From: Gemmatimonadota bacterium
Lineage (GTDB): Bacteria; Gemmatimonadota; Gemmatimonadetes; Longimicrobiales; Gaopeijiaceae
Length of the DNA: 64,000 nucleotides
Reading direction: 5' to 3'
Assembly (NCBI GenBank): GCA_034521595.1
Contig: JAXHMG010000003.1
Coordinates: forward strand, 32,001-96,000
Each line of letters begins with the position of its first letter. The stretch's first letter is position 1. The position numbers and the translations under genes were made by a program. This document shows positions 1 through 5,042 of this stretch, piece after piece. The notes under the pieces are model-generated. The model worked only from the letters and a program-made list of their open reading frames with translations. It was not told the origin of the DNA and did not search any database.

Positions 1-88
1 TCACCCCGCCACACCCGTTCCGGGCCATGTAGGCCGGAGCGCCCGCAGGGCGCGGAGCCGGCAACATACTTTGTTAGCGGATGTTGGC
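1..88 (-). repeat. attC-like recombination site no. 2 (partial, truncated by left window edge)
   Basis: 1-33 matches 619-651 at 32/33 nt. It then carries the GGA-stem-GCA-stem-GGA hairpin (36-56), CCGGCAACAT and the GTTAGCGG core (73-80), in the same order as the complete site at 536-695. Confidence 0.8.
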
Positions 89-234
89 GTCCTGTGGTCC
101 ACGAAACACTTACGGTCGACGTCACGAGGAACGTCGCGTCGACGGCTATCCGTTCCGGTGGTTCGACCCCAAACGGAAACCCCGCGGACACACGGTCGAG
201 GGATCGCGCGAAGGGAGCCCAGGGAGCGAGCAGA

Positions 235-467
235 CCGAAGGTGTAACCCCAGCCGACCGAAGATGCCTCGGAGCGGGTGAACGCGCGATTCACCAAAACC
301 TCTTTGGCGCCGTCGACGAAGAACCTGCCGGGTGGACATCGCAGCCGTGGATCGAGCCCGCCCGACTGTGTGGAGCCACACGGGGGGAGGGACAGCGGCG
401 AATCCATAGGGTGGTGGGCGTGACTCGGGCCGAAGGTGCGAACCCAACTGACCGTAGATGCCTCGGA
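235..467. repeat. Internal 38-bp direct repeat pair in cassette 2 (235-272 and 430-467)
   Basis: CCGAAGGTGTAACCCCAGCCGACCGAAGATGCCTCGGA vs CCGAAGGTGCGAACCCAACTGACCGTAGATGCCTCGGA, 32/38 identical, 195 bp apart. Confidence 0.85.
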
Positions 468-535
468 CGAAGTCACTGCACGAGAACCTGAACGCGTCGC
501 CGCTGTCCTCGAACCTGACCATCCATGGCCAATGT

Positions 536-695
536 CCGCTAACGTTCAGATGTTTCCGACGTGGCCCACCACCGCTCCCTCCGGAGCCGGCCGCCCGTCA
601 TGAATACGGCTTAGGCGCTCACCCCGCCACACCCGATCCGGGCCATGTAGGGGAGCGAGCGCAGCGAGCGGACCCGGAAACATTCTTGTTATGGG
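536..695 (-). repeat. attC-like recombination site no. 1 (complete, 150 bp from AAC to GTT)
   Basis: CCGCTAAC (536-543) ... GTTATGGG (688-695). Inner arms ATGTTTCCG (550-558)/CGGAAACAT (675-683) and ACGTGGCCC (559-567)/GGGCCATGT (640-648). Side hairpin at 655-669. Confidence 0.85.
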
Positions 696-2027
696 ACGTG
701 TGTTGTCGCTCGGCGAGTCACCATGCTCCCCGCTCCACAAGAGCATGACCACGATTCCCTTACGGCTTGGTTAGTTCCAACATGACCACCGCCGGCACGT
801 CGAGCTCATTGAGGCGAACAGCCAAGATGTGCGTATCCGTGATGTCGAGCAGAGCGTGACGTACCCTGGCAGTTCGACCCATCCTTGTAGCGTCCCGTCA
901 CGAGTAATGACACGCCATCTGTCCGGGGGTTGGATGGGAAGGCCGTACTGGCCCAGCCACACGTTACCGACCCTATCTACATGGAAACCGTCCCAGTAGG
1001 GCAAAGGCCCGTCATGTCGATCCAGGCCTTCCTCCAGTCTTGCGATCTCAGCGTTGATGAAGGCCTCTTCGGCACCGCGGGCGGCGTAGGCCTCGCGGTA
1101 GGCTTGCGCCATATCCTGCTCCCAATCCGGAGTCAACGGAAACGGCTGCTCCTCCCAATGCGCGACCTGCAGCAGACGCCCCGAACTGTCGTACCAAGTG
1201 ACTTCCGGACGATCCGAACGTGCCCAGGCAAACCCGTCGGCAAACCCTCCCGCGCGACCCTTGACCGAAATGGGTCCAGGCCCTGCTCCGCGGGTCCCGT
1301 ACCACCGTCTGAGATGAGGCAACTCGGCCAAGGTATCCGTTTCGGCCTCGACGAGATCAGTAATGAGGATCGGCTGCATCTCGAAAACCCATTCGGGCCG
1401 CATTTCAGATACCCCGCTGTAGCCGTCTCCGGGTACGAGAAGAACACGCCCGTCAGCAAATGCAGATGAGGCGTAGTGGAGGAAGCTGCCCGGAAGGGGC
1501 TCAGTGGCCACTACTTCTCCCTCCCTCGAGAGGACCGTGATTCGCCGGAGCCTCCCGTCCGTCACAATGACTGAGTCGCCTTGCAAGATCAGCGCATCAA
1601 GGCCCTGATACTCCCCGGGACCTTCTCCCTTGCGGCCCCATACCTCCAGCACTGTCCCGTCGGGGGCGAGCCGATAGATCTTCCCTTCGCCGTACTCACC
1701 GATGAGTGCCCCACCATCCGGCATGATCTGGCCTGACTGCACCCAGGTGAACGTCGGATCACCAGCCGCCCAACCGAGTGAGAAAAGAGGCTCCGAATTG
1801 GCGGTCCACTCCGCCGAGCCCGGCGTACCATTCTGCACAATGCGGATACCCGACGAATCGGTCACCACGGCCTCGGCGCGGCCAGCGGTTTGTGCCTCTG
1901 GTCCACATGCCGACCCTAGGAGACTGAGAACCAGTGCTCCCGCTAGCTTCGGACTCTTCAATGGGGAAGCCTCCAGCTCAGTGATAGGTCAAACCCGGGA
2001 TCCGACCCAACAACACATGTCCCATAA
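543..2027 (-). mobile_element. Integron-like cassette 1 (single gene plus attC-like site)
   Basis: Starts at G|TTATGGG on the minus strand (2028/2027). Ends 2011-2028 and 688-705 are reverse complements at 17/18 nt. One ORF with RBS; visibly more A/T-rich codon usage than the flanking chromosome. Confidence 0.8.
760..1961 (-). CDS. 6-bladed beta-propeller-like lipoprotein (cassette gene); apparent frameshift near 851-854 affects the last ~30 codons
   Basis: TTG start with GGAGG RBS (1970-1974), lipobox LGSAC, propeller-like motifs (WGRKGEGPGEY, FHVDRVGNVWL). The called ORF ends at 771, but a shifted frame gives a more plausible end LLDITDTHILAVRLNELDVPAVVMLELTKP* at 760. Confidence 0.75.
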
Positions 2028-2040
2028 CTGTTTATTTCCG
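2011..2040 (-). other. attI-like primary insertion site (half site: L-like box plus G|TT core)
   Basis: Minus strand reads CGGAAATAAACA-GTTATGGG. It has the same T(G/A)TTTCCG box next to the AAC/GTT core as the attC sites, but no full partner arm. Lies between the recombinase stop and the first cassette. Confidence 0.6.
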
Positions 2041-2258
2041 AATCAACGTGTCGGGTTGCCCCGTTGGGGGCGTGGGGTTTCCGACGTTGATGGTCCCGTG
2101 GATAACAGGCTGCTCGATCCACGCGGTCCGGCCTCTGCGGCCTGCCTCGGTCGCGCCCGCCACTCGGCCCGCTCGGCATCTCGACCCGGCCGACTGTGTC
2201 CAACGTTCGCTACCTCGTCCGCGAGCGCAAGCGACAGCCGGCGCTGATCTCACGGCTC

Positions 2259-3443
2259 TCATTCCAGGTTGTCGAGCGGACTTCTGAGGGTTTCGAGCGT
2301 CGACTGGGCGACATGGGTGTAGACCTGGGTGGTTCGGGCGCTTTTGTGGCCGAGGAGCTCCTGGATGACCCGGAGGTTGGTGCCGCCCTCGAGGAGGTGG
2401 GTGGCAAAGCTGTGACGGAGGGTGTGGGCCGTCACTCGCTTTTGGAGTCCGGCGGCCTCGGCTGCCTGCTGGACGATGCGTTGGACGGACCGGGTCGTCA
2501 GGTGGCTTTCGGGCGTGCTGCCGGGGAAGAGCCACGGTCCGGTGGGGTAGGCGTCACGGTAGATTTGTACGGCCTCGACTGCGCGCCGTGCCAGCAGGGT
2601 GTACCGGTCCTTGCCGCCCTTGCCGCGGCGTACCCGTAACAGGCCGCGTTCCACGTCGAGGTCTTCGGGGGTGAGGCGGACGAGCTCGCTCACCCGCAGG
2701 CCGGCGCTGTAGAGCAGCATGAGCAGGGCTCGGTGCTTGGAGTTGCGAGGCTTCTGCAGGATGCGGGCGACCTCGTCCGGGGCGAGCACGGTGGGGAGGG
2801 GCCGGTCCTTCCTGGGTCTGGGGATCCGGAGGGCGACTCTGGGCCGACCGAGCACGGATTCGCAGAGGAACCGGAGCGCGCTCACGACCTGATTCTGGTA
2901 GCTCTTCGAGATCCCTTGGCCGCGGACCAGGGAAAGTAGGTACGTCTGAGCCTCTTTCCCCGGGTCGGACGGGAGGCTGGGGACGCCTCCACCGCACCAC
3001 TCCAGGAATCTGCGGATCTGTCCCAGATAAACCTTGCGGGTCTTGGGGCTGTACCCCCGGAGGTCGAGGGCTCTACGGACCCGCTCGAGGATCTCGTCCG
3101 GCGCTTCGGTGGTGGGTGGTCGCGTCGGCTCGTGTCGTCGAACGTCACGCTTTTCGTCGGGATCGGGACGGTCGAGGGAGTCGGTGCCTCCGGGCGGTTC
3201 CGGGGATGGGGCGGTGCGGTCGTCGATGACCCAGACCTGCTTCGGGCCGACCGCGCGTTGGAGCGCGGCGATGGCCGCGTCCGCGTGCGGCGCGCTCCAG
3301 ATGCCGCGGTCCGGTCGGAATTCCCGGCCGGGTAGCGCGCGGACGGCGGCGAGTGCGGGAGCGAAGTGTGAACGCCCCAACTTGATGAGAACGCGGTCTT
3401 CCCCGGGGACGACGCGAACGGTGACGGCGGGATCCGTGGCCAT
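2259..3443 (-). CDS. Tyrosine recombinase/integrase with SAM-like domain and extra HARP-like N-terminal domain; lacks the IntI insertion
   Basis: Catalytic motifs intact: GLRVSE, GKGGKDR, HTLRHSFATH, LGH, TTQVYTH. C-terminal RSPLD. SAM-like region RGYSPKTRKVY. Only 23 aa between KDR and WLFP. ATG at 3443 chosen (ORF extends to GTG 3458). Confidence 0.92.
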   Translation of the reverse strand: MATDPAVTVRVVPGEDRVLIKLGRSHFAPALAAVRALPGREFRPDRGIWSAPHADAAIAALQRAVGPKQVWVIDDRTAPSPEPPGGTDSLDRPDPDEKRDVRRHEPTRPPTTEAPDEILERVRRALDLRGYSPKTRKVYLGQIRRFLEWCGGGVPSLPSDPGKEAQTYLLSLVRGQGISKSYQNQVVSALRFLCESVLGRPRVALRIPRPRKDRPLPTVLAPDEVARILQKPRNSKHRALLMLLYSAGLRVSELVRLTPEDLDVERGLLRVRRGKGGKDRYTLLARRAVEAVQIYRDAYPTGPWLFPGSTPESHLTTRSVQRIVQQAAEAAGLQKRVTAHTLRHSFATHLLEGGTNLRVIQELLGHKSARTTQVYTHVAQSTLETLRSPLDNLE

Positions 3444-3500
3444 GCCCAAGGAAACCACGGGGTCCGGGGCGGTGGCATGGGGCGATCGGACCGTCGGTGG

Positions 3501-5042
3501 CTACCCGGTGCGCTCGATCTCTGGCCGTCCGGCGTCCAGGCGCCAGCTCGACGCGGTCGTGACAGGGGCTCCCGGGCGGGTGACGTAGTTGACGGTGCGG
3601 TAGTCGGCCGTCCAGGCATCCCCGGTCACGCTGCAGCGCACGTAGCCGCGGCGGCTGTTCTGCCAACGGACGTGGGGGTTGTCGCTCATCGCCTCCCGCA
3701 CGGAGTCGAACATGTCCGCTCCGTCTCCGTTCGAGCTGATCGAGGTGCCGACGAGCTCGGCTCCGATGACGGGGCGGTCGGGGCGGTCGTAGCCGGCGTG
3801 GAGATCGTTGACCCAGTTCGAGTGGCTGTCGCCGGTGAGCACGACGGTCCGGCCCGGCGCTGCGTCGGCGAGGGTCTGGAGCAGTCGGTCCCGGGCCACG
3901 GGGTATCCACTCCACTGATCCATGGATGTGACCACGTCCGAACCGGGGTCACGGTCGAAGGGCGCCATCATGATCTGTTGCGCGAGGACTTGCCAGGTGA
4001 CGCCGTCGCGGCCGAGCTGGCGGGTGAGCCACCGTTCCTGCGCGGTCCCGAGCATGGTCCGCCCCGCGTCGTTCCAGTCGCCGCACGGCACCTCGCGCCT
4101 GCCGTCGCCGCATGCCTGGTCGCTTCGGTACTGGCGCGTGTCGAGCGTGTGGAACGCCGCGGTGCGGCCCCATCGGAAGGAGCGCCAAATGGTGAGGTCG
4201 GCCCAGGAGCCCGGCCGAGGGATGCGCACCGGCTGGTGCTCCCACCAGGCCTGATAGGCGGCGGCCCGGCGGGCGCGCATGCGTTCGACGTCTTCGGGGT
4301 CGTGCTCCCCGACGAGATCGGCGTAGTTGTTGTCGACCTCGTGGTCGTCCCAGGTGACGATCCAGGGGCAGAGGGCGTGCGCGGCTTGCAGCGCGGGATC
4401 CTCCTTGTACTGCGCGTAACGGCGTCGGTAATCCTCGAGGGTGACGATCTCCGGGCCGTGGTGCGCGCGCACCTGGTTCTCCCCGGTCCCGTATTCGTAG
4501 ATGTAGTCGCCGAGATGCGCGACGAGATCGAGGTCCTCGCGGGCCAGGTGCTCGTAGGCGGTGAAGAGCCCCTGCTCGAAGTGCTGGCACGACGCGAACG
4601 CGAGATCGAGCCGGGCGTCCGTGCCGGTGCGGGGCGCGGTGCGGAGGCGTCCGACGGGGCTGTTGCCGTCCGCGAGATGGAAGCGGTAGAAGTACCATCG
4701 GTCGGGCTCGAGACCGTCCACATCGACGTGCACGGAGTATCCGAGCTCGGGCACGGCCGTATGCCGACCTTGCCGAACGACCCGAGCGAAGCCCTCGTCG
4801 CGGGCGACCTCCCAGTCGATGACGGTTCGCGTCCCATCCATGCCGCCGTGCTCCTCGAACGGAGCGGGCGCGAGTCGGGTCCAGATCACGCATCGGTCCG
4901 GGAGGGGGTCGCCGGAACCGACACCGAGTGTGAACGGATCTCCGTCGAGGCGCGGCCGCGACGTCACGCGCCACATGCCGGGCACACCCGCGCAAAGGAC
5001 GGCGTAGCGCGTGAGATCGGCCAGGAAGTTGCGGCGGTCCAT
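3501..5042 (-). CDS. phoD: Alkaline phosphatase D family protein (Tat-exported)
   Basis: DRRNFL Tat motif, FTLGVGSGDP, HLGDYIYE, WDDHEVDNNY, LDTRQYRS, DQWSGY, LTGDSH. Confidence 0.9.
   Translation of the reverse strand: MDRRNFLADLTRYAVLCAGVPGMWRVTSRPRLDGDPFTLGVGSGDPLPDRCVIWTRLAPAPFEEHGGMDGTRTVIDWEVARDEGFARVVRQGRHTAVPELGYSVHVDVDGLEPDRWYFYRFHLADGNSPVGRLRTAPRTGTDARLDLAFASCQHFEQGLFTAYEHLAREDLDLVAHLGDYIYEYGTGENQVRAHHGPEIVTLEDYRRRYAQYKEDPALQAAHALCPWIVTWDDHEVDNNYADLVGEHDPEDVERMRARRAAAYQAWWEHQPVRIPRPGSWADLTIWRSFRWGRTAAFHTLDTRQYRSDQACGDGRREVPCGDWNDAGRTMLGTAQERWLTRQLGRDGVTWQVLAQQIMMAPFDRDPGSDVVTSMDQWSGYPVARDRLLQTLADAAPGRTVVLTGDSHSNWVNDLHAGYDRPDRPVIGAELVGTSISSNGDGADMFDSVREAMSDNPHVRWQNSRRGYVRCSVTGDAWTADYRTVNYVTRPGAPVTTASSWRLDAGRPEIERTG

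Follow-up and report, generated by a model that had tools for sequence, protein, structure and literature searches.

The R box of an integron cassette is reportedly hybrid as long as the cassette resides in an array, and restored once the cassette is present as a circle. The locus described here shows the same principle in an unusual form. It is located at the left end of a stretch of 64,000 nucleotides, referred to below as the window, that corresponds to positions 32001-96000 of contig C3 (JAXHMG010000003.1, assembly GCA_034521595.1) in a Gemmatimonadota bacterium of the family Gaopeijiaceae. This source genome is designated G000, and the other G and L codes stand for Gemmatimonadota genomes and loci. 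The window opens inside a larger array of repeated units, its first 2 kb being the end of this array, and the array is followed by a gene encoding a tyrosine recombinase named XL. Window positions 1-2258 very probably represent the integrase-proximal end of a sedentary, chromosomal cassette array of the integron type.

Several described systems can be compared with this locus. In most integron cassettes, self-pairing of the ends exceeds the 7-nt R boxes and reaches 9-11 consecutive nucleotides (Bouvier et al. 2009, PMC2727003). On the bottom strand, the R' box is found as RYYYAAC at the 5' end of the site (PMC5027507). Integrons with an integrase gene in reverse orientation have been described as the Treponema/Spirochaetota type (10.1101/2022.02.06.479319), and clusters of attC sites without an integron integrase are known as CALIN (PMC4889954). 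The latter work mentions a few recombinases near attC sites that are devoid of the additional domain of the integrase IntI; according to it, they always accompany fewer than three sites, and they were judged not to be IntI. Later surveys filter on this additional domain (PMC8352920; 10.1101/2022.02.06.479319). Xer recombination of the CTX-phi type acts on folded single-stranded phage DNA, as mentioned by Escudero et al. 2016 (PMC4792948), who also raise the chicken-and-egg problem posed by I2 and attC and expect intermediary forms. In the open-access main texts searched (PMC and bioRxiv), no account was found of a domain-less IntI relative associated with cassette arrays, nor of stems longer than 9-11 nt or of a fixed wobble. 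Self-pairing cassette ends are therefore a textbook principle, and what the searched literature does not describe is the stem length of 16-18 and the fixed wobble.

Private pairing of cassette ends

The initial annotation of this DNA reported that the ends of the first two units of the window, called cassettes A and B below, pair with one another far beyond a 7-nt core. Both inverted repeats exist as described, with 17/18 and 14/16 matches. A repeat finder delimits them as 688-706 with 2010-2028 (19 nt, 95% complementary) and 73-88 with 528-543 (16 nt, 88%). Bases 1-33 recur at 619-651 (97%), and the stretch between the two pairs of repeats is therefore a conserved element. BLAST and profile searches detect this element of about 150 nt in 17 copies between C3:605 and C3:32725. 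Further copies were detected where contig C1 begins and, on C3 itself, in small clusters outside this interval. The array that reaches the left end of the window comprises at least 17 sites over 34 kb of contig C3.

To quantify the pairing, the AAC and GTT positions of each site of G000 were set by eye on the aligned sites, and helix length was counted as ungapped pairing from GTT. The right flank of each site was compared with the left flank of the following one for 16 neighbour pairs (C3:629-34028). All of them form helices of 14-25 nt (median 18), of which 15 join true cassette ends. The remaining pair, 1678/14271, is 12.6 kb apart, and the true partner of 1678 is found at C3:3459 (24 nt, one mismatch). 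The two flanks of one resident site, by comparison, form a helix with a median of 6 (n=15). When only the nine variable positions of the helix are scored (5-7 and 13-18), a mean of 8.25 are paired between a cassette's own ends, against 4.60 at resident sites (n=15) and 4.42 in the other combinations (n=237). The observed mean was reached in 0 of 10,000 permutations, by which chance was rejected as the source of the private pairing.

The same property was followed in relatives with a covariance model trained on 30 sites from five genomes. This model replaced two pattern-based site finders that recovered 5/15, then 11/15 of the known sites, the second one with about 0.9 false sites per 20 kb. 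It returned 145 matches at 13 loci from nine genome sets, 9 of which were dropped for unclear AAC/GTT boundaries. Among the 104 distinct neighbouring pairs, the median helix is 16 and a length of at least 14 nt is attained in 82, as compared with 7/118 resident-site pairs and 86/1301 other combinations. Self-matching ends are thus a property of the further units as well, in G000 and in its relatives. In most cassettes of the nine genome sets the stem ends at 15-20 nt. The canonical IntI arrays of the phylum have own helices with a median of 10 (n=52) and resident-site helices with a median of 7. The suggestion that these stems are longer than usual therefore holds against both standards, medians of 16-18 being observed where 9-11 are in print and 10 are found in canonical arrays. 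The additional statement that the two flanks of a resident site match only at TAAC/GTTA calls for a correction, since such flanks also pair at the conserved positions 8-12 (GACGT/ATGTC), whichever two are brought together.

Site structure, strand and crossover

On the plus strand, the left part of a site consists of variable bases, ATGTC, three variable bases and TAAC, followed by the core from GTTCAGATGTTTCCGACGTGGCC on. The core ends with CCGGAAACATTCTT and is followed by GTTA, three variable bases, GACGT and variable bases. AAC and GTT are invariant in 30/30 aligned sites. Over the same 30 sites the L stem displays compensatory changes in 8 of 9 pairs, in agreement with an imperfect attC hairpin with R''/R' and L''/L' boxes. 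In the folds, the L'' arm contains one bulged T and the opposite R'-L' arm a bulge of 3 nt, and a second extrahelical base six pairs on is not evident. The cores of the cassettes are 70-93% alike, and the outer stems are wholly different yet paired. All the units of the array share one orientation, and a crude score places the best open reading frame (ORF) on the minus strand, pointing away from the attI-like region, in 11/15 cassettes.

The outer stem has a second particularity. Its position 11 is a G.T pair, with G in the right arm and T in the left arm, in 16/16 pairs of G000 and in 81/82 pairs of the relatives, where position 10 is often T.G or a mismatch (23/82). Elsewhere in the helices, the non-Watson-Crick pairs amount to 37 G.T/T.G versus 2 A.C in the relatives and to 7 versus 1 in G000. 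Since these wobbles are nearly all G.T on the plus strand, pairing is kept on this strand only, and the plus strand is therefore the bottom strand of the integron literature.

The position of the crossover can be deduced from the boundaries of the cassettes. In plus-strand coordinates the core goes with the cassette on its right. Indeed, both copies of cassette B share their left core and diverge after TAAC, where one continues into another core and the other into the attI-like region. Likewise, the secondary-site clusters have a complete core at their start and end with TAAC followed by unrelated DNA. These boundaries would place the crossover within TAA|C on the plus strand, or G|TT on the top strand, the exact phosphodiester bond within TAAC being finer than such comparisons resolve. 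A crossover in the GTT triplet had been proposed initially, and the private flanks do switch partner exactly at TAAC/GTTA.

The restoration of an extended stem upon circularization was examined by rebuilding the circular junctions of 14 sites in silico and folding them with DNA parameters, next to resident sites and foreign-flank controls. The mean fold energy is -45.8 kcal/mol for the circular junctions and -35.2 kcal/mol for each of the two controls, a gain of about 10.6 kcal/mol. The outer stem has a mean of 16.3 pairs in the junctions against 6.9, and a long outer stem is present in 13/14. When a single strand spanning two sites and the intervening cassette is folded, the own ends pair across the cassette body in 5/5 cases and the R stems of the resident sites are absent. 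This thermodynamic prediction suggests that an array, too, could present a perfect R box once its DNA is single-stranded.

Taken as a whole, these observations leave little doubt that the units permute as integron cassettes do. In the proposed mechanism, the mobile unit would be a cassette together with its own attC of about 150 nt, and both insertion and excision would cross over at AA|C on the plus strand, that is, the bottom or folding strand (G|TT on the top strand). With such a crossover, the distal half of the outer attC stem of a cassette would sit at its other end as long as it resides in the array. It would become complete only after excision, in the circle, or when distant segments pair with each other in single-stranded DNA. 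A stem split in this way would be the cause of the private complementary ends, and of the chimeric resident sites that pair only at conserved positions. The sequences themselves show this arrangement, its recurrence along the array and in relatives, the strand bias of the wobbles and the boundary within TAA|C. More hypothetically, the outer stem (14-26 bp) with its fixed G.T at position 11 would be a selected feature of recognition and stability, tipping the balance toward the circular form and toward the hairpin of the bottom strand. The role of enzyme would fall to the adjacent XL, whose extra N-terminal domain may replace the recognition of extrahelical bases.

The XL recombinase

The initial annotation read positions 73-2028 as the footprint of past cassette recombination. 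This overall reading is supported, and its most interesting part, the recombinase, lies just outside the interval then considered. The recombinase and the fixed wobble are the unusual parts of the locus. XL matches PF00589 (E 7e-43) and also PF13495. With TIGR02249, the profile of integron integrases, it obtains 213.5 bits for a cut-off of 265, and profile positions 175-234 are unmatched. Its best match in the PDB is IntI4 of V. cholerae (2a3v), aligned in two pieces that skip chain residues 173-239. The corresponding span measures 66-67 aa in the XL group (73 in one; 24 rows, G000 included), 107-108 in canonical IntI (15) and 69-72 in Xer-like proteins (seven: the two of G000 and five distant ones). 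The skipped segment, the unmatched profile positions and the short span lead to the conclusion that the additional domain of IntI, about 41 residues near patch III, is absent in XL. The catalytic residues are intact: R255, K280, R348, H371 and Y380 show no variation among 44 homologues, at least 90% of which also keep H345.

At its N-terminus, XL possesses a conserved domain of about 80 residues, modelled with high confidence as beta-beta-alpha-beta-beta-alpha-beta (pLDDT > 90) and followed by a disordered linker. The structural neighbours of this domain include HARP-domain clusters and the N-termini of Bacteroidota recombinases, at a level below the bar for naming a family, so that they serve as a lead only. 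Foldseek with the whole XL model returned recombinase cores only.

In a tree from which the insert columns were removed, XL and IntI constitute one clade apart from the XerC/D-like proteins (SH-aLRT 100). Inside it, the IntI clade (100) stands beside a small group of insert-less proteins (91). Such a topology would be compatible both with XL never having had the domain and with XL having lost it. Homologues of XL (44-77% identity) were detected in 21/400 other genomes of the phylum, many of them at contig ends; within the family, XL is present in 29 of the 70 genera sampled. The possibility that XL is a housekeeping XerC or XerD was rejected, considering this patchy distribution, the two other, Xer-like genes carried by G000 and the fully supported split in the tree. 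As a separate observation, contig C1 of G224 encodes in seven places (e.g. 464119-464970) an insert-less relative of XL of 297 aa and 42% identity, six of them with identical scores. No sites of the present attC type were found in G224, and this relative looks like a multi-copy mobile element.

The locus shares several traits with a canonical integron: co-oriented cassettes beside a tyrosine recombinase and an attI-like spacer, AAC...GTT R boxes, a covarying L stem with a bulged L'' base, folding of the bottom strand, a crossover that would occur at AA|C, and an R box that is a hybrid between neighbours in the array but made whole again by circularization. The differences reside in the absence of the IntI additional domain and the presence of an extra N-terminal domain in XL, in an attC of about 150 nt with a branched core, and in an outer stem of 14-26 bp with its fixed position-11 G.T. 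A further difference is the 3-nt bulge on the R'-L' arm beside the cleavage site, without the symmetric unpaired spacer of the canonical site (PMC5027507). The canonical integrons of the Gemmatimonadota themselves also have the array downstream of the integrase gene and cassette ends that pair beyond the R box. They differ by a full-length IntI with the insertion, by attC sites of 80-125 nt and of another sequence type, by shorter stems and by the absence of the position-11 wobble. Nine canonical IntI loci of the phylum were examined; eight have an array (L107-L113, L115), always downstream of intI, in the 'reverse' orientation, and no array was found at the ninth, L114 (G374). The transcription of the integrase gene toward the cassettes is also shared with the Treponema/Spirochaetota type. 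The integrases of that type are reported to possess the additional domain, unlike XL. The likeness with the CTX-phi type lies in a recombinase without I2 domain acting on a single-stranded hairpin that mimics a duplex site, as proposed here for XL. The CTX-phi type differs in that housekeeping XerCD bring one phage genome into dif, with no array, attI or dedicated enzyme.

Co-occurrence of XL and the cassette arrays

In G000, the XL gene is located on the minus strand and is separated from the first cassette by a unique spacer of 230 nt that ends with ...AAACA|GTT; the equivalent spacer of L012 is about 216 nt long. At the junction, the motif TTCGGAAATAAACA|GTT (top strand) occurs in G000 and in G439, from the same genus, and in part in L012 and G379; it resembles the L'-R' arm of attC. 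Two other sequence features were noticed at window positions 2035-2100: two copies of TTTCCGA(A/C), a motif also present in the L' arm of attC, and an 8-bp inverted repeat, ATCAACGT/ACGTTGAT, all of which are candidate binding sites. Cassettes could possibly be transcribed by read-through from the recombinase gene. Considering loci in which the sequence continues far enough past the gene, arrays directly follow the XL homologue in L012, G249, G355, G301, G270, G363 and G439, and weakly in G379. No repeats were detected downstream of the more distant homologues of L093 (G239) and L094 (G299), and L091 is only 2.9 kb long.

The association was also evaluated by sampling 70 other genera of the family, with a single genome per genus. 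The attC type occurs in 24 of these genomes and XL in 29; they are found together in 16, and 33 genomes have neither. The attC type is found in 16/29 genomes with XL against 8/41 without it (odds ratio 5.1, Fisher p 0.004), and at the same rate with and without canonical IntI (6/17 and 18/53). Among the eight genomes with at least four sites, XL is present in seven and IntI in two. These counts come from metagenome-assembled genomes, in which repeats get lost, and from kin genomes that are not independent; they are supportive rather than conclusive.

The main competing explanation is that the arrays are ordinary remnants of the CALIN type, serviced by a canonical IntI that was lost or is located elsewhere, with XL as a bystander, for instance a third Xer or an integrase that serves some other element. 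Canonical IntI is indeed common in the phylum, where 165/401 genomes contain a protein above the family cut-off (a tally that takes in G097, G182 and G157, which are flagged as unpublished and enter no other claim). Moreover, 6/24 attC-type genomes hold a canonical IntI and eight have the attC type without XL. The small clusters found elsewhere in G000 do fit the insertion of cassettes at secondary sites, as in CALIN. At the head of the main array of G000, unlike in a CALIN, stand an attI-like spacer and a conserved recombinase related to IntI. G000, G439 and L012 all have the same succession of gene, spacer of about 220-230 nt and first cassette, and five more genomes have arrays after the gene. 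The attC type tracks XL and not IntI. G355 carries both systems, and each recombinase there has sites of a different attC type beside it. In G000, no canonical IntI was found in an assembly that is 93% complete. The remnant explanation is accordingly considered unlikely, and XL is probably the integrase of the array. Under the published rule, which requires PF00589 and the intI_Cterm profile, the array of G000 would nevertheless probably be filed as a CALIN.

A bolder proposal is that a lineage grouping with IntI that never had I2 runs a complete integron-like system, with attI, attC hairpins and arrays of up to about 44 kb. The long stem, the fixed G.T one helical turn from the cleavage and the N-terminal domain would then take the place of the reading of extrahelical bases by I2, and together recognize the folded site and choose the strand. 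This proposal is tentative and has somewhat less than an even chance of being correct.

Several points weigh against the assignment of these arrays to an XL-driven integron system. The additional domain is necessary for the activity of IntI, according to the title of Messier and Roy 2001 (reference 47 in PMC8352920). The tree comes from a quick search in which all IntI sequences are from Gemmatimonadota and archaeal XerA is not represented. Co-occurrence is imperfect, with 13 genomes having XL without the attC type in addition to the eight in the opposite situation, and canonical IntI possibly acts in trans in the six attC-type genomes that have it. The unpaired bases depart from the canonical pattern in the folds, as seen with the 3-nt bulge on the R'-L' arm. 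At the level of the pairing, 22/104 neighbour pairs in the relatives lack a long helix (missed, decayed or false sites being possible causes), and a cruder site finder gave a long helix in only 14/30 neighbour pairs, with a bimodal distribution. CTT replaces GTT at one site of G000 (C3:15728), one copy of cassette A holds an uncompensated change, and the favoured ORF orientation concerns only 11/15 cassettes. A scan of window positions 1-3700 for sigma-70-like promoters, other promoter types being outside its scope, found 0 for 0.5 expected. Finally, no clear circle or excision product appeared in the assembled Logan contigs of three public runs, in which the joints are ambiguous. These contigs break at repeats. 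Two of them run from 2028 into GTTCAGATGTT, a joint compatible both with a circle and with the copy of cassette B found further along the array. Another joins 66 to 686, as the loss of cassette A would do, but with a side of 23 nt and two extra letters. The other joints jump back between similar cores, so that these contigs speak neither for nor against excision.

Other explanations of the paired ends

The long stems could be neutral relics of a hairpin origin, since a crossover inside a long hairpin yields the observed pattern automatically, the distal part having no role; the uncompensated change in one cassette A copy goes in the same direction. Such relics would hardly account for stems that are wholly different between cassettes with closely similar cores and are still paired, and the ratio of 37 G.T/T.G to 2 A.C needs selection on one strand. 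A similar stem end across nine genome sets and a fixed G.T at position 11 are also unexpected for relics. This explanation is judged improbable, and the long stem and the wobble are somewhat more likely to be functional than to be relics.

Even less credit can be given to a role of the complementarity in RNA structure, as a terminator or as a pairing between the ends of cassette mRNAs. The stems do flank ORFs; the G.T wobbles, however, lie on the plus strand, antisense to most cassette ORFs, and become A.C mismatches on the mRNA strand, and terminator-like sites are no commoner than in shuffled sequences (2 vs 1.9). Lastly, the units can hardly be independent transposons or foldback elements inserted in a repeated target: inverted repeats do bound each unit (about 35 nt when the conserved L arms are counted), but the unit ends are asymmetric and no target-site duplications exist (the outside flanks are CTT and GTTC/TGT), a single orientation prevails throughout, no transposase is encoded in the units except in a secondary insertion sequence (IS), single-cassette insertions have a whole core on one side and nothing past TAAC on the other, and where a cassette occurs in several copies, only the core at one of its ends is common to them.

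Features of the locus and related clusters

The features identified at the left end of the window are listed in Table 1.

Table 1. Coordinates of the features at the array end, the attI-like region and the recombinase gene
Feature	Window position	Strand	Remarks
3' part of cassette A attC core	1..72	+	97% direct repeat versus 619-651; covariance-model match C3:31919-32079
Whole cassette A attC site			C3:31925-32073; the 5' part precedes the window
Cassette A, partial in window	1..542	-	Full unit C3:31925-32542 (core plus body); crossover would lie between A542 and C543, where cassette-copy homology ends at TAAC
Right flank of cassette A site (where cassette A begins, top (-) strand)	73..88	+	Pairs with 528-543; GTT, remaining R box, private extension; T.G and G.T wobble at positions 10-11
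Cassette A left flank (last bases)	528..543	+	Private extension and R' box CGCTAAC
Cassette B attC core	543..687	+	Minimum-energy fold; covariance-model match C3:32537-32694; arms L' 548-558 and L'' 675-686, one bulged T (683/684) in L''; 3-nt bulge TTC at 545-547; branched variable part between the L arms
Cassette B, first cassette beside attI	543..2027	-	Second copy C3:17552-21412
Right flank of cassette B site	688..706	+	GTTATGG and private extension; pairs with 2010-2028
Cassette B ORF, 396 aa	771..1961	-	Weak NHL-repeat match only (NF035926, E 0.00098)
Cassette B left flank (last bases)	2010..2028	+	Cassette/attI junction 2027|2028; non-attC-core sequence after TAAC
attI-like region	2029..2258	-	Reaches from the stop codon of the XL gene to the first cassette
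Tyrosine recombinase XL	2259..3458	-	Start may be 3443, as the database form has 394 aa

No Pfam family was matched by the product of the cassette B ORF, whose N-terminus, judged by eye, resembles a signal peptide ending in Cys. The second copy of this cassette (C3:17698-21413, matching window 688-2028) is split by an insertion of 2.36 kb that encodes an IstB-like protein (by eye) and is probably an IS21-family element inside the cassette. Cassette A contains a direct repeat of 38 nt (84%) at window positions 235-272 and 430-467, and an ORF of 173 aa on the minus strand (1-522) that extends into attC. A second copy of cassette A, 93% identical, is present at C3:1518644-1519186.

This copy belongs to one of several small clusters of one to three cassettes on C3 (1449697-1450404, 1014376-1017574, 1025090-1026037 and 1517137-1519186). 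They display their own left flank, TAAC and then unrelated DNA, as expected for secondary-site insertion. At C3:3456-3469, the end of a cassette (...TAAC) is followed by only four bases (CGTT) and by a new cassette start, GTTATACGC; this junction without attC core corresponds either to a deleted core or to a different recombination product. Large arrays of the same site type were also seen in other genomes. G439:C1:983749-1018088, from the same genus, is an array of about 35 kb that reaches the contig end, with no recombinase gene within the sequenced part, and G355:C1:1096656-1140894 is an array of about 44 kb. A short form of the site (80-100 nt; 30-50 bits) is mixed with a form of about 165 nt in the same arrays of L087, L119 (G355), L012 and L086.

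Significance for integron biology

The private pairing of their ends confirms that the units are real mobile cassettes. Two aspects exceed what textbooks describe. The outer stem has about twice the length given in print, and the fixed wobble that it contains is specific to one strand. As to the partner enzyme, it appears to be a relative of IntI devoid of the very domain that is used as a filter in surveys and is held to be required for single-strand recombination. If XL is active on these sites, integron diversity is under-counted, some arrays being filed as orphan clusters, and hairpin recognition can be achieved without I2. The origin of integrons, a question of long standing, would then become testable with a natural, intermediate-like system. 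If, moreover, the lineage never had I2, it would match the 'functional intermediary form' called for by Escudero et al. 2016 (PMC4792948), and surveys that filter on the additional domain would miss a whole class of integrons.

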